A stretch of 64,000 bases of DNA from the NCBI GenBank assembly GCA_041288095.1, contig JBGGMJ010000188.1:64001-128000 (forward strand), written 5' to 3'. Below the pieces are notes generated by a model. The model worked only from the letters and a program-made list of their open reading frames with translations. It had not been told where the DNA came from and made no database searches. The stretch is from Myxococcota bacterium. Lineage in GTDB: Bacteria; Myxococcota; XYA12-FULL-58-9; JALHOP01. The position numbers and the translations under genes were made by a program. Shown piece by piece: positions 5,039 through 59,899 of this stretch. Positions within the stretch are counted from its first letter, which is position 1. Each line of letters begins with the position of its first letter.

Positions 5039-5068
5039 GCGTTGGCTCCCTCGCGTACTTCAAGCTAG

Positions 5069-6241
5069 GTGAAGCGTGTATTGCAACGCCTGACGGCTGG
5101 ACACCGATCTCTAGAGCGGGCGCGTCGGCTCCTCGGGACGGTTCGTCAGCAGCGCGAGTACACCCATTTGTTGTCTTCGATGGCGGCGGAGGTCGGCGGT
5201 CGACCTCACGCAACGCCCGACCAGCGTCTCGTCGAGCTACGTGCGCATCGCCGTCCAATCGACCGTGAACGCCTGCGCGTGCTCGCTTTCGGCGCCAACC
5301 AATGGGAGCGCCATGGCTTGTGGCAGGCATTTGCAAGCCACAGCGACTTCCATTTGTCCGAGTATGGCGACGGGCGCGCGGAATCCATTGGTGCCGATGA
5401 AGACGGCGGTGAGCGTCGCGCCTCACATCGTCGTGGTTTCCTCCAGAAGCTCGACGAGCTCGAACGCGAGCGCCCCGTCGACGTGGTCTTCATCTACGCC
5501 TCGGGTGAGCATCTCGACGACGAGCTCTTCGACGCCCTCGCTGAGCGCCGCATCTGGACAGTGATCATGGCGCTCGATGACAAGCACCAGTTCACCAGAC
5601 CGCTCGGTAAAAATGGGGTGCCTCATCAGCTGCGCGCCGCGCTTCGGTGTGATCTGTACTGGACGACGTGGCGGCTTGCGGCCGCCGTGGTCGGTGCCCG
5701 TGGCGGGGCGGCTTGGGTTGCTCCAGAGGCAGCGGATCCGAGCTTTCATCGTTTCATACAGACGCACCGCGATATCGACATCCTGTTCGTAGGTGCGGCG
5801 TATGGTCGCCGCAGAGAGCTCGTCGAATATTTGCGCGCCCGTGGATTGAGCGTGAGCGCGTTCGGTCGTGGGTGGCCCGACGGCTTCGTCGATTTCGAGA
5901 AGACCATCGAGCTCTACAATCGCGCGCGTATCGTGCTCGGTGTTGGCGACGTCGGCCACATGGCCGGCGTCAAGCATCTGAAGGGGCGCGATTTCGAAGT
6001 GCCGATGACCGGCGCCCTCTATTTGACGAGCTTCAACGCCGAGCTCACCGAGCACTTCGTCGTGGGTCAAGAAATCCTCTGCTACGGTTCATTCGAAGAG
6101 TGTGCCGAGCTAGCGATCGAAGCGTTGGCCTCACCCGGCCGCGCCGAGGAGGTGCGGCTCGCCGGAAAAGCGCGAGCATTGCGCGACCACACATGGCAGC
6201 GTCGCGTTGGTCAGCTGCTCGACCTGTTGGCGTCCGCATGA
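5069..6241 (+). CDS. CgeB-like glycosyltransferase (Glyco_trans_1_2 type)
   Basis: DILFVGAAYGRR, KGRDFEVPMTG and HTWQRRV motifs. Confidence 0.85.
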   Translation: MKRVLQRLTAGHRSLERARRLLGTVRQQREYTHLLSSMAAEVGGRPHATPDQRLVELRAHRRPIDRERLRVLAFGANQWERHGLWQAFASHSDFHLSEYGDGRAESIGADEDGGERRASHRRGFLQKLDELERERPVDVVFIYASGEHLDDELFDALAERRIWTVIMALDDKHQFTRPLGKNGVPHQLRAALRCDLYWTTWRLAAAVVGARGGAAWVAPEAADPSFHRFIQTHRDIDILFVGAAYGRRRELVEYLRARGLSVSAFGRGWPDGFVDFEKTIELYNRARIVLGVGDVGHMAGVKHLKGRDFEVPMTGALYLTSFNAELTEHFVVGQEILCYGSFEECAELAIEALASPGRAEEVRLAGKARALRDHTWQRRVGQLLDLLASA

Positions 6242-7014
6242 AAGACAGACACGACACCAAGGCCCTGGCCAAGCAAGCCCTGCGTCTGGCCGTACGCGTC
6301 GGGCGCGCGGGGCGTCGCTCTCCGTCTCCGGCCAAGTGGCTCAAGTTCGCGCGCGATGCTTTGCGCCTGCGCAAAACTAGTGACGCCAGCCTACCGCTGC
6401 TCGATCTCTTTCCGATGCTCGGCGAGGAATCCGATGCAGCTGGCGTTGCTCGCGGCCACTACTTTCATCAAGACCTTTGGGCCGCCCGCAAGGTCAAGGA
6501 ATCGCAAGTCGCGCACCATGTTGATGTCGGATCGCGCATCGATGGGTTCGTTGCGCACTGCAGCCTCTTCACGCCTATCGACTACGTCGATCTGCGACCT
6601 CTCGATGGCGTCATTCCAGGTGTCCGTTTCGTCCAGGGGTCGGTGCTCGAGCTTCCTTACGAGAGCGGCTCGGTGATGTCGCTTTCGTCTCTGCATGTCA
6701 TCGAGCACATCGGCCTGGGTCGTTACGGTGATCCCATCGATCCGCGAGGTAGCGAGCGGGCGCTGACGGAGTTGGGACGAGTATTGGCGCACGGTGCGAG
6801 CTTGTACATTGGCTGCCCGATCGGACGAGAGCGCGTTTGCTTCAATGCCCATCGCGTCCTCGCTCCGACACGCGTGCTCGAAACCCTGAGCGACCTCGCG
6901 CTCGTGTCGTTTTCCGCTGTCGATGACAGGGGCGATTTCGTGGAGAGCGCAACGCCCGAGTCGTTCGTTGAAGCGGACTATGCCTGCGGCCTCTACCACC
7001 TGCGACGCGCGTGA
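6238..7014 (+). CDS. DUF268 / class I SAM-dependent methyltransferase-like protein
   Basis: Start MKDRH at 6238 (ATGA overlap); HYFHQDLW, HVDVGSRIDGF, SLHVIEHIGLGRYGDPIDP and FNAHR motifs. Confidence 0.8.
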   Translation: MKDRHDTKALAKQALRLAVRVGRAGRRSPSPAKWLKFARDALRLRKTSDASLPLLDLFPMLGEESDAAGVARGHYFHQDLWAARKVKESQVAHHVDVGSRIDGFVAHCSLFTPIDYVDLRPLDGVIPGVRFVQGSVLELPYESGSVMSLSSLHVIEHIGLGRYGDPIDPRGSERALTELGRVLAHGASLYIGCPIGRERVCFNAHRVLAPTRVLETLSDLALVSFSAVDDRGDFVESATPESFVEADYACGLYHLRRA

Positions 7015-46931: not shown

Positions 46932-47363
46932 GTGGCCAAGAGCTTTTCCGGCGGCGACGACGAGATGATCACCGAGCTGAACGTGGTTCCGCTCGTCGAC
47001 ATCGTGCTGGTCGTCCTCATCATCTTCATGCTGACGGCGAACCTCATCGCGCGGCCGTCGATCAAGGTGAAGCTGCCCGAGGCATCGACGGGAGAGGCCG
47101 CCGAGCCGACCACGGTTGCTTTGACGCTCACCAAGGAAGGCGCGCTGTATCTGAACGGCGCGCCCACGGACGAAGCGGGGCTGCGTGCCTACATCCCCGG
47201 TGTCGTCAAAGAGGACCCGGACGCCCAAGCCATCATCGCGGCCGACAAAGAAGTGCCGCACGGCGCGGTCATTCGTATCATCGACTTGATCCGGCAGCTC
47301 GGGCTCTTCAAGTTCGCTTTGAACATCGATCCCGCAGTCGCCGCCTCCGTCACCGTGCCATGA
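46932..47363 (+). CDS. exbD: ExbD/TolR protein
   Basis: LNVVPLVDIVLVVLIIFM and IAADKEVPHG. Confidence 0.88.
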   Translation: MAKSFSGGDDEMITELNVVPLVDIVLVVLIIFMLTANLIARPSIKVKLPEASTGEAAEPTTVALTLTKEGALYLNGAPTDEAGLRAYIPGVVKEDPDAQAIIAADKEVPHGAVIRIIDLIRQLGLFKFALNIDPAVAASVTVP

Positions 47364-48082
47364 AGATTTATGTGGTCACGATTGTGGTCTCGGTGCTCGC
47401 GCACTGGGCGCTCGTCGGTGGTCTGTCGAAGGCCGCCCGCGAGGCGCCCAAACCCGCGCGGGTGATCGAGATGGCGGTCGTGACTCCGCCGCCACCGGCA
47501 CCAGAGGTCGTCCCCGAGCCGCCGAAGCCGGTGGAAGAAAAGGCGAAACGACCGCCGAAGCCGGTGGACGTGCCGGTCGCGGCGAAGCCCGAGGAGCCGC
47601 CGCCGGCGAACGAGCAGAAGCCCGCCGAAGAGCCGCCGCAGCCGGTTTTCGGGATCAGCATGAGCTCGACTGTGAGCGGAAACAGCGGGTTTTCGGTGCG
47701 TGTCGGTAACACGACGATGAAGGAGCCGGAAAAGGACCGCACCGATCCGAGGGACGTAAAGCCCTATGCCGGTGGCGCGCCAAACATCGTGCCGGTGCAT
47801 TCGCTCTCGCAGCCGCCGATGCCAAAAGGAGCCTGTCCACGCGAGTTTCCCCCTGCCGCCCGAGCCGCCGGGGTGAATGGCTCGATCAAGCTCGAGCTGC
47901 TCATTCTCGAAGACGGCACGGTGGGTGAAGCGCGCCCACTCAACGATCTCGGCTACGGCACCGCGGAAGCCGCCGTGCGCGCCATGAAGAAATGCGCCTT
48001 CACTCCGGGCAGCGACGGCAGCAAGCCGGTACGCACGTTGATCATCTACAAGTACACCTTCAACTACGAAGGCGATGACTGA
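47360..48082 (+). CDS. tonB: Energy transducer TonB
   Basis: SVLAH TM motif, Pro-rich linker, C-terminal FPPAARAAGVNG...FTP. Confidence 0.88.
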   Translation: MKIYVVTIVVSVLAHWALVGGLSKAAREAPKPARVIEMAVVTPPPPAPEVVPEPPKPVEEKAKRPPKPVDVPVAAKPEEPPPANEQKPAEEPPQPVFGISMSSTVSGNSGFSVRVGNTTMKEPEKDRTDPRDVKPYAGGAPNIVPVHSLSQPPMPKGACPREFPPAARAAGVNGSIKLELLILEDGTVGEARPLNDLGYGTAEAAVRAMKKCAFTPGSDGSKPVRTLIIYKYTFNYEGDD

Positions 48083-48168
48083 GCGGGCTCGCGGCGCGAA
48101 GAAAAAAGTACGCGCGACCTTGATCTTCTTGGTTGAAACCGCGATCGCGCCTGCGTTACCTTCAATGC

Positions 48169-48375
48169 ATGGCGCTGCAAACCCACGTCGATGCCGGGAA
48201 GCTCGCGGAGCTCGTCCAGAAGGTTCGCGACATCGAGACGTCGACGGACTGCACAGGCCCTTGCCCGGACGCTAAAGCGGAGGCGCACGAACAAGCACGT
48301 GCCCTCGGCATCATCCTGGTCGAGGCCGAGAACGAGAGTCTCGCGCGCCCGCCGCGTCTCCATCCGATGGCGTGA
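48169..48375 (+). CDS. Small hypothetical protein (68 aa)
   Basis: GTGA overlap with the downstream regulator; TTGAAA-N18-TACCTT 6 nt upstream. Confidence 0.5.
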   Translation: MALQTHVDAGKLAELVQKVRDIETSTDCTGPCPDAKAEAHEQARALGIILVEAENESLARPPRLHPMA

Positions 48376-49769
48376 GCCAAACGCGCGCCCGCCGCCTGCT
48401 CATCGTCGATGACGAAGAGGGCATGCGTCACATGCTGTCGCTCACGCTCGAGCGGCAAGGTTTCACGGTAAGCTCCGTCGCCGACGGCGCCGCCGCGCTC
48501 GAGCGCCTGGCGCAGGGCGACATCGACATCGTTCTCTCCGACGTGCGCATGCCGGGCATGGACGGGCTGACGCTCCTCGACAAGCTGCGCGAGGCAAAGA
48601 GCCCCGTCATCGTCATCATGATGAGCGCGTTCGTCGATCTCGACACCGCCATCGAAGCCTTGAAGCGCGGCGCGGCCGACTACGTCTCGAAGCCCTTCAA
48701 GCCCGACGAGGTGCTGCTCAAGATTCGCATGGCCGACGAGCGCCAGCGGCTCGCCGAAGATCGCGAGCGTCTCGAGGCGGAGAACGCGCGCCTACGTGGC
48801 GAGCCGTCGCTGTCGTCGCTCGGACCCGGCATCGTCGGCAAGAGCAAGCGGCTGGCGGCGATCTTCCAGACCGTGCGCAAGATCGCGGACTACAAGACGA
48901 CCGTGTTGCTGCTCGGCGAGTCCGGGACCGGCAAGGAGCTCGTGGCGCGCGCCATCCACGACCAATCCGTGCGCTCGAAAGGCCCCTTCGTCGCCGTGAA
49001 CTGCGGCGCTATCCCCGAGACGCTCCTCGAGAGCGAGCTCTTCGGCCATGCCAAAGGCGCCTTCACCGACGCGAGCCGCAACAAGCGCGGCATCATCGAG
49101 GAAGCAAACGGCGGCACGCTTTTCCTCGACGAGATCGGCGAGCTCCCATTGCAGCTGCAGGTGAAGCTGCTGCGCTTCCTACAAGAAGACGAGATCCGCA
49201 GGGTCGGCGAGAACAAGGGCATGACCGTCGACGTGCGCGTCGTCGCCGCCACGGCCCGCGATCTGCAGCAGATGGTGGCCGAGGGCGAGTTTCGCGAGGA
49301 CCTGTTCTATCGCTTGAACGTCTTGCTGCTGACGATTCCGCCGCTGCGCGAACGCAAAGACGACGTTCCGCTGCTCGTCGAACACTTTCTCGCCCGCTAT
49401 GGCGAACGTTTGGATCGCGCCGGCATGAGTGTGTCACGCGAGGCCTTGAAGGTCCTCATGGACTACAACTGGCCCGGCAACGTCCGTGAGCTCGAGAACA
49501 CCATCGAGCGTGCCATGGTGTTGAACGAAGGCGACCGCATCGAGGTCGACGGCCTACCGGAGCGCTTGCGCAAGGAGCCCGAGGCGACACCCGAAGCGCT
49601 GGCCTTCGGTGACGACCTGTCGATCAAGCGCGCCGTCCGCGCCATCGAGCGTGAGCTCATCAAGCGCGCCCTCGAAAAGACAGGCGGCAACCGCACGCGC
49701 GCGGCGGACCTGCTCGAGCTCTCGCACCGGGCGTTGCTGTACAAGCTCAAGGAATACGATCTGTCTTGA
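48372..49769 (+). CDS. NtrC-family sigma54-dependent response regulator (Nla19/PxrR-like)
   Basis: REC domain, GESGTGKE, GAFTDA, LFLDEIGE, WPGNVREL and Fis HTH ending SHRALLYKLKEY. Confidence 0.93.
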   Translation: MSQTRARRLLIVDDEEGMRHMLSLTLERQGFTVSSVADGAAALERLAQGDIDIVLSDVRMPGMDGLTLLDKLREAKSPVIVIMMSAFVDLDTAIEALKRGAADYVSKPFKPDEVLLKIRMADERQRLAEDRERLEAENARLRGEPSLSSLGPGIVGKSKRLAAIFQTVRKIADYKTTVLLLGESGTGKELVARAIHDQSVRSKGPFVAVNCGAIPETLLESELFGHAKGAFTDASRNKRGIIEEANGGTLFLDEIGELPLQLQVKLLRFLQEDEIRRVGENKGMTVDVRVVAATARDLQQMVAEGEFREDLFYRLNVLLLTIPPLRERKDDVPLLVEHFLARYGERLDRAGMSVSREALKVLMDYNWPGNVRELENTIERAMVLNEGDRIEVDGLPERLRKEPEATPEALAFGDDLSIKRAVRAIERELIKRALEKTGGNRTRAADLLELSHRALLYKLKEYDLS

Positions 49770-49839
49770 GCGGCCACTCGTACGCTCGCCCGACGTCGCC
49801 TGCACTTCGTACACTCGAATTTTTTTTGTGACACACTGC

Positions 49840-49881
49840 GGCGTCGACGAAACCCTCCCCGGAGGTTTCGTCGTCGACGCC
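49840..49881 (+). ncRNA. Candidate structured sRNA hairpin (Pxr-like)
   Basis: GGCGTCGACGAAACCCTCCCCGGAGGTTTCGTCGTCGACGCC: bulged stem with C-rich apex, 70 bp after the bEBP. Confidence 0.35.
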
Positions 49882-50160
49882 AACTTTGCGCAATGAGCTA
49901 CCGCGCCCAGGTGGGATGATTTGCTTCACTGGCGAGCCGCTATCGCGTTGCTTGTAGGAGCCTTGGTGGTTTGGCACCGAGGGAGTTTGCTTGACCCACC
50001 GCTGCGCTTCGAAAATGCACCGGTGCATTTCGGGCGTACTTTTTTTGGGATGAAATCGACGTCCTGAAGACGAATGTTGTTGACGCGTCTCCGCGTTGAC
50101 ACCGCCTTAGCGGACCGGCGGCCTTGCGAGAATGCCTTCTCTGCGCGCCCGCTCGCGCTC

Positions 50161-50240
50161 TGCTAAATGGGGACACTAACCATTTTCCGTATCAAACCCG
50201 TGCGTGCGTCGGAAAAATGGTTGGTGTCCCCAATTTAGCA
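50161..50240. repeat. ~30-bp imperfect inverted repeat (REP-like)
   Basis: TGCTAAATGGGGACACTAACCATTTTCCG-N20-CGGAAAAATGGTTGGTGTCCCCAATTTAGCA. Confidence 0.75.
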
Positions 50241-50272
50241 AAAAAATTTTCGAGGGAACGAAGTGAAAAGGC

Positions 50273-50836
50273 TCACTTACCGCAGATGAGATGCCCGATC
50301 GCCACGTCCACGTTCAGCGCCACCGTCGCCTTGATGGTCGTGGTGTTCTGCGGCGAGTTGCCGTCGACCTCGGTGCCCAGCGAGAAGCTGCCCGCTTTGG
50401 CGTAGTCCTTGAGGTTCACGTCGGTGACGTCGAGGCCGACCGTGCGCAGGCCCGCCTGGAACGGACCGCCTTCGGCGATGAGCTCGCGGCGGCCGTTTTC
50501 GCCGACTGCGTAGAAGGCAATGCTGTCGATGAACTCGAAGTCCTGCCCGGAGGCGGGCGAGATGATCTCGAGGGTCAGCGAGTCCACTTTGACGGAGTCG
50601 ACGTCGTCGATGTCGAAGCCGCGGTTCTTGAACTCTTGCTCGTTGCTGACGTCGATGCTGCCGAACTCGACGAAGCCGAGCTCGTCCAGGATGCTGAGGG
50701 GCGAGCCGCCTTGAATCGTCGTGTTGGCGCTCTTGGTGATGATGATGTTGTCGAGGTTGCTGCACGCAAGGAAGGCGAAGACGACGCAAATGCGGCCAAC
50801 GAGGAGCTTGCGGCGGAGATTCGGGCGATTGGTCAT
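50273..50836 (-). CDS. Hypothetical lipoprotein
   Basis: FAFLAC lipobox; beta-rich mature part; start ATG 50836 or 50845. Confidence 0.8.
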   Translation of the reverse strand: MTNRPNLRRKLLVGRICVVFAFLACSNLDNIIITKSANTTIQGGSPLSILDELGFVEFGSIDVSNEQEFKNRGFDIDDVDSVKVDSLTLEIISPASGQDFEFIDSIAFYAVGENGRRELIAEGGPFQAGLRTVGLDVTDVNLKDYAKAGSFSLGTEVDGNSPQNTTTIKATVALNVDVAIGHLICGK

Positions 50837-50904
50837 CGTGGGCATCTTACGAGGACGCGCCCGTGACGGGAAATATTCTGACGAAGAGGGTTATCGGGGG
50901 TGGA

Positions 50905-50980
50905 TGGTGGAGCCGAACGGGATCGAACCGTCGACCTCCTGAATGCCATTCAGGCGCTCTCCCAGCTGAGCTACGGCCCC
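50905..50980 (-). tRNA. tRNA-Ala(GGC)
   Basis: GGGGCCGTAGCTCAGCTGGGAGAGCGCCTGAATGGCATTCAGGAGGTCGACGGTTCGATCCCGTTCGGCTCCACCA: 76 nt, G3:U70 pair, encoded CCA. Confidence 0.98.
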
Positions 50981-51020
50981 ATGTCCACCCACAGCGCTCT
51001 GGGAGCGCTGCGAACCTGTC

Positions 51021-51440
51021 TCAATTCGTCGACTTGCTTACGCTCGTGCGCGCTTTTTTGCTAGTGCGCGCTTTCTTTGCCGCCGGACGCTTCTTGGCCG
51101 GGGCTGTGTGTCCGTTGAGCTCGCCTTCGGCGTGAGCATTCACGCGAACGCCGGCCCGCTTGCTGGCCGCTTGCGGTGCAAGGCTGGTCACGACCTCGTT
51201 GAGGCGCTCGACCGTGCGTTGCACGAACGAGGGAAGCGGAACTTTGCCCTGATTGGCGAGCTTGTAGGTCTGCTCGCCGAGCAGCACCATCAAGCGATCG
51301 CGCTCCTGCATGAGGCGACGGATATCGGCCTCGATGCGGTCGCCGCGGCGGCGGACGACTTGACGCACGTCGTCGAGTTGATCGACTGCCTGTCGGAACA
51401 ACGCGCCTACCTGTGCTTTCAACGCAGCCCGCTTTGCCAT
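51021..51440 (-). CDS. Hypothetical coiled-coil protein with basic PAKK-rich tail
   Basis: Helical N-terminal part; APAKKRPAAKKARTSKK tail. Confidence 0.7.
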   Translation of the reverse strand: MAKRAALKAQVGALFRQAVDQLDDVRQVVRRRGDRIEADIRRLMQERDRLMVLLGEQTYKLANQGKVPLPSFVQRTVERLNEVVTSLAPQAASKRAGVRVNAHAEGELNGHTAPAKKRPAAKKARTSKKARTSVSKSTN

Positions 51441-51618
51441 GGGAAAGGTCTCCGGATCCGCGGCGCGTGTAGCAAACGGCATCTTGGGCTGTCAATTCAA
51501 AGAAGTGTGGGTGGTCCGGCTACCACCCAAAAAGATTTTTTCCGTCCCCGTCGTCTGCCGTGTCTAATCGGCAAACATCGCTCACGACCTTTGGGCCGTG
51601 CATCGCGAAGGAGACATT

Positions 51619-52590
51619 ATGCGTTGGTCTAAATACCTCATTCCCGCCGGCTTCCTCTTCGCGGTGGCCTGCGGCAAAGAAGAAGCCACTTTCCAGGAGG
51701 CCTTGCCCAGCAAGGACGCTCTCACCGTCAACGCGCCTGACAGCTCCAACGCGCTCGCGGTCGGTCAGCTCTCGGGCTTCTACGTCATCACGCGCTTGGC
51801 GACCGTCGGCGTGAACGTCACCGTGGCTGGCATCTTCAACCTGCTCGAGGACATCGTTCGCCAGCCGCCGACCACGATCGAGGGCGAGACCGCGATCTGG
51901 GGTCCGGGCGCGGGCGACGCGCTCGACCCGAACGTCTATCGCCTGGTCGTGACCGGCGCGAACGGCAAGTTCACCTACAGCCTGGAGTACCGCCGCAAGA
52001 ATTCGGAGGGCGACTTCATCGTGCTGGCCTCGGGCCACTCGGACAAGTCGAGCGGCGAGGCCGACGGCGTTGGTGACCTCAGCATCTTCGTGACCGCCTG
52101 GGGCGAGGCGAGCCTGAACCCCTGCGATCGCGGCACCGCGGTGATCAACTACGACACCACGACCCAGCCGCAGAAGCTCAGCATCGACTTCTCGGACTTC
52201 CGCAGCTGCGAAGAGGCCGAGGACGGTGTCTACTCGGCAAGCTACTACTACGACCGTTTCGCCGACGGCAGTGGCAACTTCCAGTTCACCGCGAACGGCG
52301 ACATCCAGGAAGGCGCCCGCGCCGTCGACGTCCTCGAGGACCTGGTCATCCGCTCGCGCTGGAACGCCACCGGCGCCGGCCGCTCGGACGCCAAGATCTC
52401 GGGCGGTGACTTGAGCCTCGAAGGTGTCACGGAAGTGACCACCAGCGAGTGCTGGGACGCGAACTTCGGCATCACCTTCGCGGTGACCACGCCGCAGGTC
52501 GTCGACCTCGACCATACCGCCGGCGCGGAGAGCGCTTGCCCGGCAGGCATGCAATCGGCCAGCTACTCGGTGGATGCCTCGATCCTCTAA
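51619..52590 (+). CDS. Hypothetical lipoprotein A (paralog of 55611-56582)
   Basis: AGGAG SD; FAVAC lipobox; WGP, ISGGDL, ECWD and ACP motifs. Confidence 0.85.
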   Translation: MRWSKYLIPAGFLFAVACGKEEATFQEALPSKDALTVNAPDSSNALAVGQLSGFYVITRLATVGVNVTVAGIFNLLEDIVRQPPTTIEGETAIWGPGAGDALDPNVYRLVVTGANGKFTYSLEYRRKNSEGDFIVLASGHSDKSSGEADGVGDLSIFVTAWGEASLNPCDRGTAVINYDTTTQPQKLSIDFSDFRSCEEAEDGVYSASYYYDRFADGSGNFQFTANGDIQEGARAVDVLEDLVIRSRWNATGAGRSDAKISGGDLSLEGVTEVTTSECWDANFGITFAVTTPQVVDLDHTAGAESACPAGMQSASYSVDASIL

Positions 52591-52608
52591 CTAGGAACGA
52601 CGTGTGCA

Positions 52609-52646
52609 AAGCCCCCGCAGGTCACTCCGAGTGCCTGCGGGGGCTT
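52609..52646 (+). terminator. Strong hairpin between lipoprotein A and the ECF sigma gene
   Basis: AAGCCCCCGCAGG(T)CACT-CCG-AGTGCCTGCGGGGGCTT; only a short U tail. Confidence 0.55.
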
Positions 52647-52668
52647 CACGCGTCATTCGATCGTCTTC

Positions 52669-53205
52669 ATGGACAACAGCGACGACCGCCCAGACCTTCG
52701 CGCTCTCTACGAGCGCTATGGTCATTCCGTCTTCCGGCGCTGTCGCTACTTCCTACGCACCGACGACGACGCGCGCGACGCCATGCACGAGGTCTTCCTC
52801 AAGGTGGTCTCCTCGTATGGCGACTTTCGCGGACAGGCTTCGCCGCTCACTTGGCTCACCCGCATTGCCACGCACCACTGCTTGAACGTCCTACGCGGTC
52901 GCAAAGCCGGCTGGCACGAGCGGTACGCGCAGGTGGTCGAAGTGGGCGCTCAGTGGAACGAACCTGGACAGGCCTCGTTCGAGCGCGCCGAGCTCGTGCG
53001 CCGGTTGCTGGCGCGCCTCGGTCGCGAGGAGCAGGAAGCCGCGATCTATTACTTCGTCGACGAGATGAACCAGGACGAGGCCGCCCGGGCCTGCGATTGC
53101 TCCCTGCCCACCCTGCGGAAACGCTTGCGGCGGTTCATCGAGGTGGCCCGCAAGGAGCTCAAGCGCGAGGACGCGACGTTGGTCTTCGGGGAAGCCCCGA
53201 TCTGA
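52669..53205 (+). CDS. ECF-type RNA polymerase sigma factor
   Basis: LYERY...DARDAMHEVFLK, FRGQASPLTWLTRIATHHCLN (sigma2); EMNQDEAA...SLPTLRKRL (sigma4). Confidence 0.92.
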   Translation: MDNSDDRPDLRALYERYGHSVFRRCRYFLRTDDDARDAMHEVFLKVVSSYGDFRGQASPLTWLTRIATHHCLNVLRGRKAGWHERYAQVVEVGAQWNEPGQASFERAELVRRLLARLGREEQEAAIYYFVDEMNQDEAARACDCSLPTLRKRLRRFIEVARKELKREDATLVFGEAPI

Positions 53206-53280
53206 CGCCGGCGCCCGTGGTGTGATGGGCGACACGTTTTTCTTTTTCTCTTTCGCAAGCCCACGGGGTCTGTTGATTCG

Positions 53281-53988
53281 ATGAGCACGCACGACGCCAT
53301 CTCTTCCTTCATGCTCGAGCGCTACGCTGTCGGCGAGCTCGACGGTGCCGACCTCGCGGCGGTCGAAGCGGCCCTCGCGGCCGACCCGGCGCTTGCGGCC
53401 CGCGTCGAGAGCATGCGTAGCGCGCGTCAGCAGTTCCTCGCCGACGAGCCCTACGCCACCTTTCGCATCGAGCATGAGCGCCGCCGGGCGCCGGTGAAGA
53501 AGCGCTTTTCCTTGTGGCTGCCCACGGGCTTTGCCGCGGCGGCGGCGACGGCGCTCTTGCTGCTGTTTATCGTGCCCGAGGTGGACAGCGAGCGCGTCAA
53601 GGGCTCGGGAGTCGGTCTCACGGTGGCCTTGGTCGGGAGCGGCGCGCCCAAAGCGTTGGCCAGCGGCGCCGTGGTGCACCCGGGGGATCGTCTACAGCTC
53701 GCCTACGATGCCGGCGACTATCGCTACCTCGCGTTGATTGGAATCGATGGCGGCGGCGTCATGAACGTCTACTATCCCGAGGGTGGCGAGGTGATGGCTC
53801 GCCGGCCCGCGGAGTCGCGCGGAGCCTTTCCTTTCAGCCTGACGCTGGATGCGACCTTGGGCACCGAGACCATGGTGGCGGTTTTCGCGGAGCAGCCGTT
53901 GCCGCTCAAGCGGATCGAAGAAGCAGTCCGCAAGAATGAGGTTTTGCCGGGGGTAAGCACGGTTCGTGTGACGCTCGACAAGGAGTAG
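53281..53988 (+). CDS. Membrane anti-sigma factor with periplasmic DUF4384-like domain
   Basis: N-terminal LERYAVGEL...VEAAL (zinc-free ASD-like), one TM helix, RVKG, VHPGDRLQL...GIDGGG...YYP...SLTLD...E..VAVF. Confidence 0.78.
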   Translation: MSTHDAISSFMLERYAVGELDGADLAAVEAALAADPALAARVESMRSARQQFLADEPYATFRIEHERRRAPVKKRFSLWLPTGFAAAAATALLLLFIVPEVDSERVKGSGVGLTVALVGSGAPKALASGAVVHPGDRLQLAYDAGDYRYLALIGIDGGGVMNVYYPEGGEVMARRPAESRGAFPFSLTLDATLGTETMVAVFAEQPLPLKRIEEAVRKNEVLPGVSTVRVTLDKE

Positions 53989-54000
53989 AAGAACGCAATC

Positions 54001-55614
54001 ATGACTGGTTGGCTGCTCAGCATCGCGCTCTTGACGAGCGCTCTGAACGTCAACGAGCCCGTCGAACGCCGGGTCGCTCTACTCGTGTCTCATCCGTTCG
54101 GCGGCGACGATCTCACGCCGCTCCGCTACACCGACAACGACGTTGCCCGCATGCGCGATGTCTTGCGCATGACCGGCGGCTTCGCCGAGCGCGACATCGT
54201 CGTGGTCTCCGCCGAGGATGCCAACAAGGTACGCGCCGCCTTCGCGGCGTTGCGCGAGCGCCTGCAAGCCGACAAGCGGCCGTCGCTCCTGCTCTTCTAC
54301 TATTCGGGACACGCGAAGGACGGCGAGCTGCGGCTCGGCAAGTCGACGCTGGCACTGACCGAGGTGAAGCGTCTGCTCGAGCAGACACAGGCGTCGTTCC
54401 GCATCGCGCTCCTCGACGCTTGCCGCGTCGGCAGCATCACCCGCTTGAAGGGCGCCACCAAGGGCGAGCCGGTGAGCATCGACATCGACGACACGACGAT
54501 GCAGAGCGGGCAGGTGCTGATCACCGCCTCGTCCGACGATGAGGACGCGCAGGAGAGCGACGAGATCCAGGGCTCGTTCTTCACGCACTACCTGACGAGC
54601 GGTCTGCGTGGCGCCGCCGATCTCGATCGCGACGGCCGCGTGACACTCTCGGAAGCCTACGGGTTCGCCTACGAGAACACCGTGTCGCGCACCGTGGCGA
54701 CGCGCGGCGGCACGCAGCACCCGACCTTCCGCTTCGACATGCGCGGCGCCGGCGACGTCACTTTGGCGCGCGCCGACGCGCCGACCTCGGGCATCAGCTT
54801 CCCCAAGGCGCTCGCGGGCGAGTTCGTCGTCTTCGACAGCAAGCGCCGCGTCGTCGTCGCCGAGTTCGACAAGGACACGAGCGAGAGCCTGCGTGTCGCG
54901 GTCGCGCCCGGCGACTACGTCGTCAAGAAGCGCGAGACCGACCACGTGCGCTTGAGCCGCCTCAAGGTGCGCGACGACAACTTCGTGACCGTCGACGTGA
55001 ACGCCATGGAGAAGGTCGCTTTCGCGGACGACTACGCCAAGGGTCAGACGATCTCCGCGCAAGAGGTCATTCACGGCAAGCTCGGCGTCTTGCTCTCGGC
55101 GCAGCTCGGCGTGCAGTCGTTCTTGTCGGCGCCGATCCGTGACGCCTACGTGCCGACCCTCGGGCTCTTCAAGCTGACGCTCGATCTCCGCAACGCCATT
55201 CGCCGCAACGTCGGCGTGCGCTTCGACGCGGGCGTCGGCTCGAGCGGCGAGCAGGGTCTCGCGGTGACCGACCCCTTGCTGGGTGACCTCGGCTACCGCG
55301 CGCGCGTCTCGCTGTTCACCGCTGGCGTCGGTCTCACCGGCGACGTGCCGTTCACGTCGTGGCTCCGCTTGAGCGGTGTCGGCCGACTCGGCTTCATCCG
55401 GGTGGCGCGCGAGTTCACCGGCGCCGAAGCCATCCCGACGCAGGCGTTCTCGACGCTCACGCCCGGGATCGAAGCGCGATTGATCGCTCGTTGCACCAAC
55501 TGGCTCGAGGCAGGCCTCGGGGCCGGCGTGCACTATGTGTTTTTCAACGGGGACGAGTCGCAGTCGCTCGCTTACGTCGACGGCGGTCTCATTCTCACGG
55601 CGGTGCTGCGATGA
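54001..55614 (+). CDS. Exported caspase-family (peptidase C14) protease with predicted C-terminal beta-barrel
   Basis: Signal peptide; YYSGH (His104) and LDAC (Cys141); AQES...GSFFTH; EF-hand-like DLDRDGRVTLSE; eight amphipathic strands. Confidence 0.88.
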   Translation: MTGWLLSIALLTSALNVNEPVERRVALLVSHPFGGDDLTPLRYTDNDVARMRDVLRMTGGFAERDIVVVSAEDANKVRAAFAALRERLQADKRPSLLLFYYSGHAKDGELRLGKSTLALTEVKRLLEQTQASFRIALLDACRVGSITRLKGATKGEPVSIDIDDTTMQSGQVLITASSDDEDAQESDEIQGSFFTHYLTSGLRGAADLDRDGRVTLSEAYGFAYENTVSRTVATRGGTQHPTFRFDMRGAGDVTLARADAPTSGISFPKALAGEFVVFDSKRRVVVAEFDKDTSESLRVAVAPGDYVVKKRETDHVRLSRLKVRDDNFVTVDVNAMEKVAFADDYAKGQTISAQEVIHGKLGVLLSAQLGVQSFLSAPIRDAYVPTLGLFKLTLDLRNAIRRNVGVRFDAGVGSSGEQGLAVTDPLLGDLGYRARVSLFTAGVGLTGDVPFTSWLRLSGVGRLGFIRVAREFTGAEAIPTQAFSTLTPGIEARLIARCTNWLEAGLGAGVHYVFFNGDESQSLAYVDGGLILTAVLR

Positions 55615-56582
55615 AGCGCATCTCGATGGCACTCGTGGCGCTCTTGGGCGCGTGTGGAGAGCTCTCGAACGACGATCTCGTCTTCCTGCGCGGTGTACCG
55701 CAGAAGGAGGAGCTCAGCCTCGATGTCGAGGAGGCTGTGGAGAACGGCCTCGTGGGCGCGCCGGCCGAGTTCTACGCCTTCCTGATCGCGGCCTCGGAGG
55801 AGACCAACAACGACGTCGCGAACCTGCTCGACTTCGTCGACAGCATCGGCAAGGGCTACCCGCCGACCACGCGCGAGCACAACCTGCGGGTCTGGGGCCC
55901 GGTGCGCAACGTCGACGGCAGCGGCACTACCGTTCGTTTCGAGGTCCGTCGTGAAGGCGACACGTTCCGCTATTGCCTCCATACGGCGCGGGACAGCGAA
56001 GTCACGGGCGAGCCGACCTGCGACGACATCCCCGGGGGCTTCGGCATGGTGGCGATTCTCTACGGCGAGTACCGCCCGCGCACCGTTGGCGGTGGCGCCC
56101 GCGAAAGCGACGGCGTCGCGACGCTCGATATGGAGAGCGCGTTCCAGCGTGGCCTCGGCTTCTCGCGCGGCAAGCTAGTCGTCACCCACGCATACGCCGA
56201 GGACGGCGACACCAAGCAGCTCACGATCACCGCGGACGCGCCGCAGATCGGCCTGCAGCCGGCGGTCCACGCCGCCTACTCGTACGACCGTGACGTCGAC
56301 GGCCGTGTGCAATTCTCGCTCGAGGCGCCCGGCGACTTCATCGAGACGACGCGCATCCCGGAGGATATGCAGATCGACGCCTGCTGGCGTGAAGGCAGCC
56401 CCGGCCGCGCCAACGTCGTCATCAGTGGTGGCGATCTGCTGGGCTTCAGCCCCGCGACCGCGGTCGAGTGCTGGGACGGCGGTATCGCTCGTACGTACGC
56501 GAGCTTCGAGCTCCCCGACTTCCCCATCTACAACTCGAACGAAGGCAACATCGCCGCCTGCCCGCCGCCGAACTGCGAGTGA
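55611..56582 (+). CDS. Hypothetical lipoprotein B (paralog of 51619-52590)
   Basis: ATGA overlap; LLGAC lipobox; WGP, ISGGDL, ECWD and ACP motifs. Confidence 0.85.
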   Translation: MKRISMALVALLGACGELSNDDLVFLRGVPQKEELSLDVEEAVENGLVGAPAEFYAFLIAASEETNNDVANLLDFVDSIGKGYPPTTREHNLRVWGPVRNVDGSGTTVRFEVRREGDTFRYCLHTARDSEVTGEPTCDDIPGGFGMVAILYGEYRPRTVGGGARESDGVATLDMESAFQRGLGFSRGKLVVTHAYAEDGDTKQLTITADAPQIGLQPAVHAAYSYDRDVDGRVQFSLEAPGDFIETTRIPEDMQIDACWREGSPGRANVVISGGDLLGFSPATAVECWDGGIARTYASFELPDFPIYNSNEGNIAACPPPNCE

Positions 56583-56620
56583 CTGGTTGCCAACGCGGGG
56601 CCTTCTGGTAGGGAGGCCCC

Positions 56621-59026
56621 GTGAAAGCCCACCCGCTCATCGTGTTGATCGTCCTGACGGCCTGCGGTGGAGGCGGCAAGGACGGTCCCAAGAACAACAT
56701 CACCATCACCGCTTTGGCGGACAGTATGACGCTGCGCCAGGGCTCCCAGGCCTATCTCGGGCTCACGGTCGAGCGGCCCGCCGACTTGGGCGACATCACC
56801 ATCGTGCTCTCCGAGCCGGAAGGCATCTACGCTAACGATATCGTGCTCGTTGCCGGCGAGACCAAGGTCGTGCTCGAGCTCGCGACGAGCGTCGCGTCGG
56901 ACCTCGGCGCGTCGAGCTTGCTCATCTCCGCCACCGCGGACGGTGGTGACGGCAGCACGCGCGTGCCCGCCGACATAGCTGCGCCGTCGCCGTCGAGCGT
57001 CGACCTCATCAACCAGGCGCTCGAAGGCAGCGCCATCGACTATCCCACGTCCGTGCTCTACCGCGCCTACGCGCTCGTCGATGATCCGCGCTTGCCGGAG
57101 GCGTATCGCGGCGTCGCCGGCGAAGAGGATCTGGGTTTCTTCGTCGATGCCGCGGACCCTAGCCTGCCCGCCGAGACGCGCACGGCGCTCGCGCCTTTCC
57201 TCGTACGGCCCGCGGATCCGGCGAGCATCTGGCAAACGCTGGCGCCGACGAACCCGGGTGGCCTTACCGCCGCGGTCGTTCCCTGCAACGTTACGGACCC
57301 GGGCCAGGACGTGCAGGGCGGCTTCAAGACCGCGCGCGTCCAGGCGCCGATTCGTGTCTGGGTGCAGTGCACCGGAAACGATGCGGAAGACGACATCGTG
57401 CTCGCTTCCGGGCTCTCGTACGCGAGCGCCATGTACGGGCCCATGAGCACGCACATGGGACCGCCGGTGTTCGACGATGTCGCGGAGAACCAACCCGGCA
57501 ATCTCGATAGCGCAATCGACGTCTTCGTCGTCCACGATGGCGGCGCGTCCCTGCGCAGCGGGGTTACCCAGATCGGCAACGGTATCGCGGTGGCGACCGC
57601 GCCGTTCGCGGGCGACACCTCGAGCGGCTACATCCTCATCGGTCGCTCACGCGCCGAGAGCGCTGGTTTTCGCTCGACGATGATTCACGAGTTCTTCCAC
57701 GTGCTGCAGAAAGCGCACAATCGCAAGGTGATGTGGGAGCCGTCGGCGCTGGGCCCGAGCACCGAGTTCTGGTGGGTCGAAGCATCGGCCACCTGGGCGT
57801 CGTCGCACTTCGCGCGGAGCCTCGCGCCGGCGAACGTCTATTACCGCTTCGCGGACTTTCAACAGTCGCCGTCGTCGCTGCACCGATCGTACGCGGCCGG
57901 TAACCCGAAGATGTACGCGGCATTCATCTGGGGCTTCTGGGAGGAGCACGAGAGCGGCTCGCCGGAGACCATCGCGACCTCGTGGGTCGATCTGGAAGGC
58001 GTGAGTGGCTTCACGGCGGCGAACGAAGCGCTCGACGGCGTCTTCGATTTCGAAGCCAGGTTCCACGAGTTCGCGATAGCGAACATCAACGAGGACTACC
58101 CGCGGGCGCTCGGTCTCGACAAGCGCCACCGCGGACTCGATTCACGCTTTCCGGAGCCGCGCCCGCGTCCGAGCTACGCCGACGACCAGACCGTCAACGA
58201 GACGCGCGAATTCAGGCCCGGAGTCGACATCCCACCCTTGAAGGCCGCCTATTATCGGTACACGCCGCGCGGCGACGTGAGGAAAGTCGTCGTCCACTTC
58301 GACGAGATCACCACCCGCGAAGGGCTCGACATCGACGGCGTCATCAAGTCCGACGGTAACTGGGGTGTCGAAAGCTATAGCGGACTCGCCAAGAAGACCT
58401 TCTGCCTCGATCGCGACAAGGTCGAAGACATCATCCTCGTGCTCTCGAACCACGATCTGCCGATCACGCAGTTCGTGCTCGGCAACTTGCGCGTCGAGGT
58501 CACCGAGGCCCCGTGCAAGGCAACCTGGTCGGGCACCTTGCGCTACGAGATCTCGAGCGACGCTCCAGCCGGCAATCAGCACTCGATCGTCACCGCCAAC
58601 GTCGTGCTCGAGCAGGACGAAACTCGGGAAAGCAGCCCCTTCCTGCACTTCCTGCCGACCGGCACCTTCACGCTCACCAAGAGCGGCACCGTCGGCGGTT
58701 GCGTGCTGCAGGTGGGTGACTACCACGGCACGTTGTCGCCGGTGCCGGAGCAAGGCGAGCTGACGCTCGACCCCGCGACCGATCCCGTTCGCTACCAAGC
58801 GACCTTGCAAACGCCGATGTTCGCGCTGCATCAGCATGCGGATTGCGAGCCGCCGCAGGAGGACTACGACGTGGACACGCCGCAGATCTACTCGCTCATG
58901 CTCGTGCCGTTCGCGGACGGCAAGACGGCGTCGGAAGACGGCATCCACATCGACGGGACGAAGATGCTCGGGAGCGACTTCCATAGCGAAGTCTTCGAGT
59001 GGCACCTGACCCGCGACGTCCCCTAG
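56621..59026 (+). CDS. Lipoprotein zinc metallopeptidase (HExxH, gluzincin-like), copy 1
   Basis: LTAC lipobox; HEFFHVLQ...WWVEASATW. Confidence 0.82.
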   Translation: MKAHPLIVLIVLTACGGGGKDGPKNNITITALADSMTLRQGSQAYLGLTVERPADLGDITIVLSEPEGIYANDIVLVAGETKVVLELATSVASDLGASSLLISATADGGDGSTRVPADIAAPSPSSVDLINQALEGSAIDYPTSVLYRAYALVDDPRLPEAYRGVAGEEDLGFFVDAADPSLPAETRTALAPFLVRPADPASIWQTLAPTNPGGLTAAVVPCNVTDPGQDVQGGFKTARVQAPIRVWVQCTGNDAEDDIVLASGLSYASAMYGPMSTHMGPPVFDDVAENQPGNLDSAIDVFVVHDGGASLRSGVTQIGNGIAVATAPFAGDTSSGYILIGRSRAESAGFRSTMIHEFFHVLQKAHNRKVMWEPSALGPSTEFWWVEASATWASSHFARSLAPANVYYRFADFQQSPSSLHRSYAAGNPKMYAAFIWGFWEEHESGSPETIATSWVDLEGVSGFTAANEALDGVFDFEARFHEFAIANINEDYPRALGLDKRHRGLDSRFPEPRPRPSYADDQTVNETREFRPGVDIPPLKAAYYRYTPRGDVRKVVVHFDEITTREGLDIDGVIKSDGNWGVESYSGLAKKTFCLDRDKVEDIILVLSNHDLPITQFVLGNLRVEVTEAPCKATWSGTLRYEISSDAPAGNQHSIVTANVVLEQDETRESSPFLHFLPTGTFTLTKSGTVGGCVLQVGDYHGTLSPVPEQGELTLDPATDPVRYQATLQTPMFALHQHADCEPPQEDYDVDTPQIYSLMLVPFADGKTASEDGIHIDGTKMLGSDFHSEVFEWHLTRDVP

Positions 59027-59838
59027 CGGCGGCGCTTGCTCGACGTAGGCGCGGGCGCGGCTTTCGGGGCTTGCGGTTTGTGCGCGCGGAAATGCTCCCA
59101 CAAGAGGATCGAGGTCGCCTGCGCGAGGTTCAGGCTCTCGGTGCTGCCGGCGCCGGGAATGGTGAGGTGGAGCGCCGCCCGTTTCACGAGCTGCTCGGAG
59201 ACGCCCGCGTTTTCGCCGCCCATGCAGAAGAGAACGCGCGGCGGCAGCGTGACCTCGCCAAGGAGCGCCTTGCCGTGCGAGCTGGTGGTGACCACCGCGA
59301 TGTCGTGATCCGTGATGGCGGACAGGTCGCGGCCGAGATCGCGCAGCGGTACGTGCTCGACCGCTTCGGTGGCGCCTTGCGCGACGCGCACGGCTGCCTG
59401 CGAAAAACCCGGTGATTCGCCGGCCGTGAGCAGGTGATGCGCGCCGAAGTAAGCGCACGCGCGCGCCACGGCGCCGATGTTGTTGGGATTCTTGACCCCG
59501 TCGAGGAGCACCATGGCGATGGGACCGCGATGGCGGACGAGACGGCTCGCGAGGTTCGCCGCCATCAACGGTTGCTTCTTGCGCGCCACCAGGCAAACGC
59601 CGTCGTGGCGCATGGTCTCGGTGAATGCCGCCAGCTCCTCGATGGTGACTTCATACCAAGGCACGTCGTTACGCTCGCACCACTCGAGGATATCGGCGGC
59701 CTCGTCCCGCACGCGGTCGATGACGTAGACACGCGTGATGTCGCGCGGACGGCTCGCGAACAAGGCTTTCGCGGACTCGAGGCCGGCGACCTTGATCTCG
59801 TGTTTGAGCGAGGGCGGAATTTCGCGGAAACGAGGCAC
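59023..59838 (-). CDS. TrmH/SpoU-family RNA 2'-O-methyltransferase
   Basis: HDGV, LDGVKNPNNIGAVAR, MGGENAGVS and ESLNLA; start uncertain (59838 or 59865). Confidence 0.9.
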   Translation of the reverse strand: MPRFREIPPSLKHEIKVAGLESAKALFASRPRDITRVYVIDRVRDEAADILEWCERNDVPWYEVTIEELAAFTETMRHDGVCLVARKKQPLMAANLASRLVRHRGPIAMVLLDGVKNPNNIGAVARACAYFGAHHLLTAGESPGFSQAAVRVAQGATEAVEHVPLRDLGRDLSAITDHDIAVVTTSSHGKALLGEVTLPPRVLFCMGGENAGVSEQLVKRAALHLTIPGAGSTESLNLAQATSILLWEHFRAHKPQAPKAAPAPTSSKRRR

Positions 59839-59899
59839 TGCACAACCGCGTAACTCGCCTCGCAAGCACTAAGCAAGTCGCGGATACTCCGAGCGACGC

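Follow-up and report, generated by a model that had tools for sequence, protein, structure and literature searches.

An ECF sigma factor, anti-sigma factor and orthocaspase cassette of Myxococcota as a candidate caspase-gated envelope signalling operon

This study concerns five tightly packed genes, all on the + strand at 51619-56582 of a 64,000-nucleotide stretch of DNA from a Myxococcota bacterium (the window; positions 64001-128000 of contig C188 in genome G000, a 5.85-Mb assembly of 212 contigs that is 90% complete). In the list of open reading frames (ORFs) of the window, they follow each other as lipoprotein A, extracytoplasmic function (ECF) sigma factor, anti-sigma factor, orthocaspase and lipoprotein B. 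This cassette is best explained as a copy of an envelope signalling operon that regulates itself and occurs throughout the phylum. Its most economical mechanism, a plausible one to which we give a probability of about 0.45, would have the orthocaspase act as the site-1 protease of the neighbouring anti-sigma factor, cutting it after K107. The observations behind this reading are gene content, synteny, folds, motif conservation and a promoter-like motif. The initial annotation of the window had already described five co-oriented genes, and all of these ORFs were confirmed. Its ECF sigma factor, its single-pass anti-sigma factor with a DUF4384-like periplasmic domain, its exported caspase with intact His and Cys and a predicted beta-barrel, and its lipoprotein B, translationally coupled and paralogous to lipoprotein A, were likewise borne out by the results given below.

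Conservation of the cassette across Myxococcota

Proteins matching the window caspase at E <= 1e-20 occurred in 317 of 401 Myxococcota genomes, a tally that includes the window genome and the unpublished genome G195. A sample of 60 loci, the best match of each of 60 genomes, was picked by hand among the approximately 150 matches listed (603 further ones existed). It comprised about one locus per genus plus three from the window's own genus; contigs with flanks were preferred and about 7 kb was taken on each side. Four rounds of jackhmmer with the window proteins against the 8712 stop-to-stop ORFs of these loci recovered the caspase in 60/60, the anti-sigma factor in 59/60, the lipoprotein family in 59/60 and the ECF sigma factor in 56/60 loci, the four misses of the latter being contig ends. 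The complete co-oriented core (ECF sigma factor, anti-sigma factor, caspase, lipoprotein) was present in 54 of the 60 loci. Among the remaining six, L084 was ambiguous owing to an over-long hit envelope, and L042, L049, L058, L060 and L088 end at contig ends. Median gaps were -4 nucleotides between sigma and anti-sigma genes, 8 between anti-sigma and caspase genes and 8 between caspase and lipoprotein genes. The grouping of these genes is far beyond chance, with order and orientation kept across the phylum; they form a genuine module that is ancient and spread phylum-wide. The co-occurrence of ECF, anti-sigma and C14 genes, on which the initial annotation had staked its proposal, is therefore real.

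The association was also found at paralogous loci. In five complete genomes, where Pfam C14 matches were counted by hand from tables, 22 of the 29 C14 genes had an anti-sigma-type gene directly upstream on the same strand, and one further C14 gene had such a gene within 1.4 kb in another order. At all four C14 loci of the window genome (on contigs C188, C90, C32 and C126), the C14 gene was closely preceded by one for a membrane protein with a match to the anti-sigma profile. The three beyond the window lie at C90 31936-35377, C32 11213-15592 and C126 32476-35159. The C90 locus also has its own ECF gene, and its caspase, a 756-residue ORF, matched the family profile over the first 356 of 530 positions only, so that its C-terminal part is unlike that of the barrel-bearing form encoded in the window.

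This distribution bears on an alternative in which the caspase would be a cell-death or defence effector, degrading envelope proteins during developmental lysis or phage attack, while the sigma factor would only license its expression. A link between Myxococcus xanthus metacaspases and developmental autolysis is raised in the available text of Asplund-Samuelsson et al. (PMC3501461), and the DdvS/DdvA sigma/anti-sigma system, as far as its published description was available, controls a defence island. Yet the genes that flank the cassette in the window include none for defence. Moreover, the cassette is a stable single-locus feature in 54/60 of the genomes surveyed, and as many as 8 or 9 paralogous sets occur in a genome, which speaks for signalling diversity rather than for a mobile defence island. 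We hold the effector role to be very improbable.

The orthocaspase, its predicted barrel and the anti-sigma linker

Window proteins were compared with Pfam and NCBIfam profiles and the scores were set against the curated cut-offs. The orthocaspase (54001-55614, +, 537 amino acids) belongs to peptidase family C14, as it matched Peptidase_C14 over residues 23-244 (E 4.7e-13; 49.8 bits for a cut-off of 21.4) and displays the His-Cys dyad. His104 (54310-54312, +) and Cys141 (54421-54423, +) lie in SGH and DxC motifs and, together with D47 and D139, were invariant in 55/55 aligned relatives. An AlphaFold2 (AF2) model computed from this 55-sequence alignment (mean predicted local distance difference test, pLDDT, 85; predicted template modelling score, pTM, 0.78) consists of a signal-peptide-like helix (3-14), the C14 domain (23-244), an immunoglobulin (Ig)-like sandwich (254-339), a linker and a barrel (362-535). 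Ordinary cleavable signal peptides were found in the relatives. Foldseek searches with the model returned MALT1 caspase-Ig3 chains first (E 2.9e-8), followed by caspases 6 and 7 and legumain.

At the profile level, the caspase matched the p20 part of metacaspases (Yca1 7qp0, E 1.9e-6; also AtMC9 and AtMC4). D47 and D139 align with the Asp of the metacaspase C-x-N-D motif and with the D-S-C motif, respectively. From structure papers, we take this pair (the C-x-N-D Asp and the Asp two positions before the Cys) to be the pocket by which metacaspases select Arg or Lys. Cleavage after these residues is stated for metacaspases and orthocaspases in the available portions of two publications (PMC3501461; PMC6426788). 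Two conserved K-G pairs occur in the caspase itself. The first belongs to T147-R148-L-K150-G151 (54439-54453, +), inside a disordered loop (144-167, pLDDT<50) that directly follows Cys141; T and R were found in 52/55 relatives each, K and G in 55/55 each. The loop after the catalytic Cys is the usual place of caspase processing, and this stretch is a candidate autoprocessing site. The second pair, K347-G348 (55039-55044, +), was kept in 55/55 sequences at both residues and lies in the linker that joins the Ig-like domain to the barrel, after strand 337-339 and ahead of the first barrel strand (362-374). A role of this pair in release from the barrel is a matter of speculation.

The C-terminal part of the caspase was modelled as eight long antiparallel strands (362-535). 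Its closest structural neighbours in Foldseek were OmpX (1qj9, TMt 0.75), OmpA (9fzc, TMt 0.74) and Ail. In the ESM Atlas model, residues 352-536 aligned to OMP_b-brl and OmpA_membrane clusters (template modelling score, TM, 0.78-0.79), and the caspase family profile matched NspA (1p4t, E 9.7e-4). Pfam barrel matches were recorded for a few relatives (Opacity in 6/55, OMP_b-brl in 4/55) and none for the window caspase sequence. A simple amphipathicity scan delineated four hairpin-length segments. In the model, this part is thus a small outer-membrane beta-barrel of the OmpA/OmpX/Ail/NspA type, with predicted membrane insertion. Both ends of 8-stranded barrels face the periplasm, so the two domains ahead of the barrel, protease and Ig-like, are expected to be suspended from the outer membrane on its inner side. 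The protease domain should accordingly be periplasmic and anchored by the barrel. The receptor role that the initial annotation had given to the caspase finds no support here, the barrel being a small anchor and the protease domain being expected to face the periplasm.

The anti-sigma factor (53281-53988, +, 235 amino acids) displays the traits of class I anti-sigma factors, which contain an anti-sigma domain (ASD) or its zinc-binding form (ZAS): an N-terminal helical domain, a gene placed directly after the sigma gene and a single membrane helix, here at about residues 78-98. Matches to NCBIfam anti-sigma models were weak and below the cut-offs (NF010501, E 6.1e-6; NF052375, E 2.5e-5). Its AF2 model (mean pLDDT 87) contains four cytoplasmic helices (9-69), a stretch with pLDDT<50 (92-106) and a beta-sandwich (111-234). 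Residues 132-206 matched DUF4384 (PF14326) with an E value of 1.2e-4, and since the score of 22.6 bits lies below the 27-bit Pfam cut-off, DUF4384-like is the right wording; 31 of 53 relatives matched this family at E <= 0.01. Only generic Ig-like structures, e.g. RhoGDI at TM of about 0.3-0.5, were found by Foldseek as neighbours of the anti-sigma model. Profile-profile comparison of the anti-sigma factor with the caspase gave no significant similarity, so that the middle domain of the caspase is not shown to be DUF4384-like. The zinc motif HxxxCxxC (zf-HC2) is absent from the window protein, where no His or Cys stands at the motif columns of the alignment, and zf-HC2 was matched by 26/53 relatives. 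By its sequence, the window protein is a non-zinc member of a mostly ZAS family. The motif was also lost in its close relatives, so any zinc or redox input would be absent in the window's clade.

Despite a mean identity of 26%, the alignment of 53 anti-sigma sequences contained two invariant columns, one of which is K107. This residue belongs to R105-V-K107-G108 (53593-53604, +), a candidate cleavage site in the juxtamembrane linker. The motif lies 9 residues past the membrane helix, at the end of the disordered stretch 92-106 and three residues before the first strand. With K in 53/53, G in 52/53 and R in 48/53 sequences, R-x-K-G is the only motif of the protein that was called invariant. A control for the fold was provided by 26 further anti-sigma-type paralogues from five complete genomes (L129 being uninformative). 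Of the 19 paralogues adjacent to a caspase gene, 18 had K-G at a distance of 8-25 residues past the membrane helix and the 19th had R-G, whereas among the seven without a neighbouring C14 match K-G occurred in one, R-G in three and neither in three. The difference gave a Fisher p of 2e-4, to be read with the fact that paralogues are kin and not independent. In random 45-residue stretches of long ORFs, the background was 5.8% for K-G and 39% for [KR]-G. Taken together, the R-x-K-G linker, the TRxKG loop of the caspase, its kept Asp pair and the tracking of caspase presence by K-G lend circumstantial support to a site-1 role.

The same features might also be read as binding without cutting. The DUF4384-like domain and the tethered caspase, with lipoprotein B, would then form a trans-envelope contact comparable to FecA-FecR or RcsF-IgaA, through which the anti-sigma factor would read the state or position of the caspase and its barrel. 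R-x-K-G would be a pseudosubstrate keeping the protease inactive, and the true substrates would be other envelope proteins. Tight gene pairing fits binding as well as cutting, and a pseudosubstrate would be expected to look like the loop of the caspase itself, as R-x-K-G and the strand after it do. Fusions of DUF4384 to protease domains are moreover described as frequent, which suggests a domain for protease partners, and TonB-dependent transducers bind and protect their anti-sigma factors according to the accessible text of PMC11637429. However, a stable contact across the periplasm meets the same geometric problem as a cut made from the outer membrane (see the last section), and the purely generic Ig-like neighbours of the DUF4384-like domain offer no known binding mode. 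We consider this alternative rather unlikely.

The sigma factor, promoter-like sites, lipoproteins and neighbouring genes

The sigma gene (52669-53205, +) codes for 178 amino acids. The protein is a member of the ECF sigma factors (sigma-70 group 4), containing regions 2 and 4 only, both above cut-offs: Sigma70_r2 was matched with E 6.6e-13 (48.7 bits, cut-off 24) and r4_2 with E 6.5e-6 (26.1 bits, cut-off 25.7), and the NCBIfam model TIGR02937 with 67.8 bits (cut-off 42.9).

A pair-of-words count on the regions upstream of the cassettes yielded the ECF-type motif TTTC-N17/18-GTGTC. In the window it occurs at 51539-51564 (+), with TTTC at 51539-51542, a spacer of 17 nucleotides and GTGTC at 51560-51564, 55 nucleotides upstream of the lipoprotein A start. 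The looser pattern TTT[CT]-N13-20-GTGTC was present within 250 nucleotides upstream of the first cassette gene in 39/54 loci, for 69 of 6650 control windows of 250 nucleotides from the same loci (1%). With a two-block weight matrix built from 36 sites, the window site ranked second genome-wide (28.2 bits). Three of the other five matrix sites above 19.5 bits lie directly upstream of lipoprotein ORFs: C7:2953(-), C69:23064(+) and C194:7313(+). These ORFs of 455, 333 and 393 amino acids, respectively, have lipoprotein signal sequences, resemble none of the cassette proteins and may be members of the regulon. The ORFs downstream of the other four strong promoter-like sites had no similarity to cassette proteins. 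Simple scans for sigma-70 promoters and terminators performed no better than on shuffled sequences. For 51400-56700, no RNA data set was listed, and five DNA runs from three studies were. The conserved motif fits an autoregulated operon beginning at lipoprotein A, and is in keeping with the earlier suggestion that the sigma factor would induce this lipoprotein.

A second, weaker promoter-like site (TTTC-N17-GGGTC, 53245-53270, +) was observed in the gap between the sigma and anti-sigma genes. Similar sites occurred in 5 of 12 gaps of at least 50 nucleotides (those of the window, of three loci of the same genus and of L043, where the site is an exact TTTC-N17-GTGTC), for 58 of 20882 control windows of 80 nucleotides. 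Its status as a promoter is doubtful because it lies only 11 nucleotides from the ATG. The gap itself (53206-53280, 75 nucleotides) is peculiar to the window's clade, as most relatives overlap by 4 nucleotides. It contains a GC hairpin followed by a T-rich run (53212-53231 plus tail), an arrangement shared by the three loci of the same genus. The element could be an attenuator, an internal promoter for the anti-sigma, caspase and lipoprotein B genes, or both.

The promoter-like sites also fit another alternative, in which the caspase would be an output of the system and not its input. The sigma/anti-sigma pair would answer some other cue (general envelope proteases, or zinc or redox state at the ZAS), and the autoregulated operon would drive an envelope-remodelling set made of the two lipoproteins and the protease anchored in the outer membrane. 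It is common for ECF operons to contain their own targets, the promoter-like motif precedes the whole operon, the next-best sites of the genome precede other lipoprotein ORFs, and zf-HC2 was kept in 26/53 anti-sigma relatives. On the other hand, such a scheme accounts neither for the pairing of C14 genes with anti-sigma genes of this type at many paralogous loci whose caspase C-termini differ, nor for the tracking of caspase presence by K-G. We regard it as improbable.

Lipoproteins A and B are paralogues of 323 amino acids each (27% identity, BLASTP E 8e-21). Lipoprotein A (51619-52590, +) has a Cys at residue 17 after a hydrophobic leader; its start is the first ATG of a longer ORF and is preceded by a plausible ribosome site. 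The start of lipoprotein B (55611-56582, +) overlaps the caspase stop (ATGA), which makes the two genes translationally coupled. No named family was found for either protein in Pfam or NCBIfam, and an ESM Atlas search returned only unnamed Myxococcota clusters and weak open-sheet look-alikes. Family invariants were the lipid Cys, a WGP motif and two further Cys residues; the lipoproteins displayed no R-x-K-G-type motif. A copy was located downstream of the caspase gene in 59/60 loci (two copies in 4/60) and upstream of the ECF gene in 33/60. In a quick maximum-likelihood tree of 71 lipoproteins, the 18 sampled upstream copies fell on one side of a branch with a Shimodaira-Hasegawa-like approximate likelihood ratio test (SH-aLRT) value of 99, which points to a single old duplication.

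Downstream of the cassette, a lipoprotein of 801 amino acids with an HEFFH motif (56621-59026, +) starts 38 nucleotides after lipoprotein B. It weakly matched the MXAN_6640 putative metalloprotease family (38 bits, cut-off 140). This HExxH lipoprotein was ruled out as a conserved cassette member, being matched in only 1/60 loci (as two tandem copies), and is a local addition. A SpoU-family RNA methyltransferase gene with a substrate-binding domain (59023-59865, -) is convergent with it. Upstream of the cassette were found a TonB_C protein (47360-48082), which lies 3.5 kb upstream and outside the conserved set, an NtrC-type sigma-54 activator with a receiver domain (48372-49769), a lipoprotein-like ORF of 190 amino acids (50273-50845, -), a tRNA-Ala(GGC) gene (50905-50980, -) and a coiled-coil-like ORF of 153 amino acids (51021-51482, -). 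None of these upstream neighbours (47360-51482) was conserved beside the cassette in the 60 loci.

Proposed mechanism and comparison with known systems

In the mechanism that we favour, in which the signal, the part played by the lipoproteins and all of the proteolytic steps are inferred, the resting ECF sigma factor would be held at the inner membrane by the single-pass anti-sigma factor. The barrel of the exported orthocaspase would anchor it in the outer membrane, on the inner side, with the protease and Ig-like domains in the periplasm, probably together with lipoprotein B, which would be made in step with it. An envelope signal would activate the caspase, perhaps via a self-cut in the TRxK150|G loop, and a possible self-cut at K347|G would free it from the barrel. 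Within R-x-K|G of the anti-sigma factor, the caspase would then cleave behind K107, at a distance of 9 residues from the membrane on its outer side, and an RseP-type site-2 protease would remove the stub; four Peptidase_M50 matches in the window genome (best E 1.3e-68) are candidates for this step. The freed sigma factor would finally transcribe from TTTC-N17-GTGTC in front of lipoprotein A, and hence the whole operon, with perhaps a few other lipoprotein genes.

Several points weigh against a site-1 role of the caspase, and geometry is the main objection. Given the width of the periplasm, a caspase tied to the outer membrane would be expected to fall short of a target that lies 9 residues away from the inner membrane. 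It could get there if it were released, if it had not yet been inserted or if the envelope were deformed. Release by self-cleavage is suggested by the invariant K347-G348 pair that precedes the barrel; this is speculation, as is the other way round the problem, namely that only uninserted caspase would act. Secondly, the L104/L130 ECF/anti-sigma paralogue keeps TRSKG without an adjacent caspase, and three more caspase-less paralogues have R-G at the same place, for which reason the R-x-K-G motif could be partly structural. At L130 (G156:C1:6624800-6633000), genes were recorded at 5832-6353, 5029-5835 and 4442-5026 (all -), with a 194-residue ORF of no family and then dnaN; this pair is either served by a caspase encoded elsewhere, or its motif has another role. 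Thirdly, most relatives keep the zinc-finger (ZAS) anti-sigma domain (zf-HC2 in 26/53), and redox signals from the cytoplasm can act on such domains with no need for a cut in the periplasm. Furthermore, the profile-profile match between the two R-x-K-G segments was not significant (probability 1.2%, E 0.042), and the basic-specificity pocket formed by D47 and D139 is presumed from earlier structures.

If geometry is taken at face value, a narrower version of the proposal can be formulated. The orthocaspase would have a defined physiological substrate and, as a site-1 protease, would reach R-x-K|G only when freed by its own cut (K347|G) or when uninserted. The operon would accordingly report the state of the outer membrane or of barrel assembly, in a manner analogous to, and mechanistically unlike, DegS/RseA, and the many paralogous cassettes of each myxobacterial genome would form a sensor family. 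This version is offered tentatively, as a possibility with the odds somewhat against it.

The gene association as such is already in print. Four operons of M. xanthus DK1622 composed of an ECF sigma factor, a hypothetical membrane protein and a metacaspase, two of them with a lipoprotein, are tabulated in the available portion of Asplund-Samuelsson et al. 2012 (PMC3501461; rows 282-285 of supplementary file 2), which reports the same operon structure in Anaeromyxobacter, Haliangium, Sorangium, Ralstonia and Fibrobacter. This is the gene set of the window cassette. In that portion, the treatment consists of an operon table and one paragraph, with no anti-sigma assignment, DUF4384, barrel, motif, promoter, mechanism or experiment. 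Elsewhere in the literature searched, the locus tags of the M. xanthus operons appeared only in a gene-cluster table. No experiment, substrate or physiological role for sigma-linked caspases was found in this literature, whose scope did not extend to subscription papers on M. xanthus ECF factors. The main text of Casas-Pastor et al. 2021 does not mention caspases, and DUF4384 is recorded in the part of its supplement that was available only for ECF25 anti-sigma factors; CHAT proteins were noted in the context of ECF54 in a 2022 review. The initial statement that no characterised example was known thus agrees with the literature searched, but the operons had already been tabulated (PMC3501461) and a version in cis had been proposed for DdvA in the text available from PMC11506125. 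As far as this search extends, neither the mechanism nor the candidate site, the promoter motif or the topology has been published before. The cassette offers a candidate caspase substrate defined to the residue (K107|G108) together with a transcriptional read-out through a recognisable promoter motif, and it is present, as four such operons, in the genetically tractable M. xanthus. Should the proposal not hold, it would still need to be explained why C14 genes are so strictly paired with anti-sigma factors of this type.

Among known systems, FecA/FecR/FecI resembles the cassette in that an ECF sigma factor is encoded together with an anti-sigma factor of the inner membrane and a protein of the outer membrane, and a signal passes across the envelope. 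In the cassette, by contrast, the outer-membrane partner is an 8-stranded anchor bearing a protease. No TonB-dependent receptor, signalling domain or FecR domain was found by Pfam in the cassette proteins, which places the cassette outside cell-surface signalling. The MALT1 paracaspase is similar to the cassette caspase in fold only, with a caspase domain followed by an Ig-like domain. It is eukaryotic and cytosolic, cuts after Arg and displays approximately 11-12% sequence identity to the cassette caspase, a likeness without functional implication.

RseA/DegS/RseP, with related cases of regulated intramembrane proteolysis of anti-sigma factors, is comparable to the proposed mechanism in its single-pass anti-sigma factor, which is cut first in the periplasm near the membrane and subsequently by a site-2 metalloprotease. 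The site-1 enzymes are different: DegS is a PDZ serine protease of the inner membrane, whereas the candidate of the cassette is a caspase-fold cysteine protease on the outer membrane. If the proposal is true, such a protease, acting in trans from the outer membrane, would join the short list of anti-sigma site-1 proteases.

A caspase-fold protease that cleaves the holder of an ECF-type sigma factor is also known from type III-E craspase (Csx29 TPR-CHAT, Csx30, Csx31 and RpoE), where the caspase-like Csx29 cuts Csx30, which binds the sigma factor, and where one group of Csx30 C-terminal domains is DUF4384 (bioRxiv 10.1101/2022.08.17.504292). Craspase is cytoplasmic, RNA-guided and CRISPR-linked, while the cassette belongs to the envelope and has no CRISPR genes nearby. 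DdvS/DdvA, as far as described in the available texts of PMC6061681 and PMC11506125, shares with the cassette an ECF sigma factor, a single-pass anti-sigma factor (zinc-type in DdvA) and a periplasmic His-Cys module of caspase fold, as well as the proposed route, a site-1-like cut of the juxtamembrane linker followed by RseP. In DdvA, the His-Cys site is directed towards the juxtamembrane linker of the other protomer and self-cleavage was proposed, not shown, while RseP-dependent loss was shown for DdvA without its CHAT domain (PMC11506125, same portion). The DdvA protease is a TPR-CHAT module fused in cis and acting in a dimer; the cassette has a separate, outer-membrane-anchored C14 orthocaspase, and its anti-sigma factor, unlike DdvA, carries a small DUF4384-like sandwich. 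Were the proposal confirmed, DdvA (CHAT in cis) and craspase/Csx30 would join the cassette in a single theme, that of caspase-fold proteases releasing ECF sigma factors.

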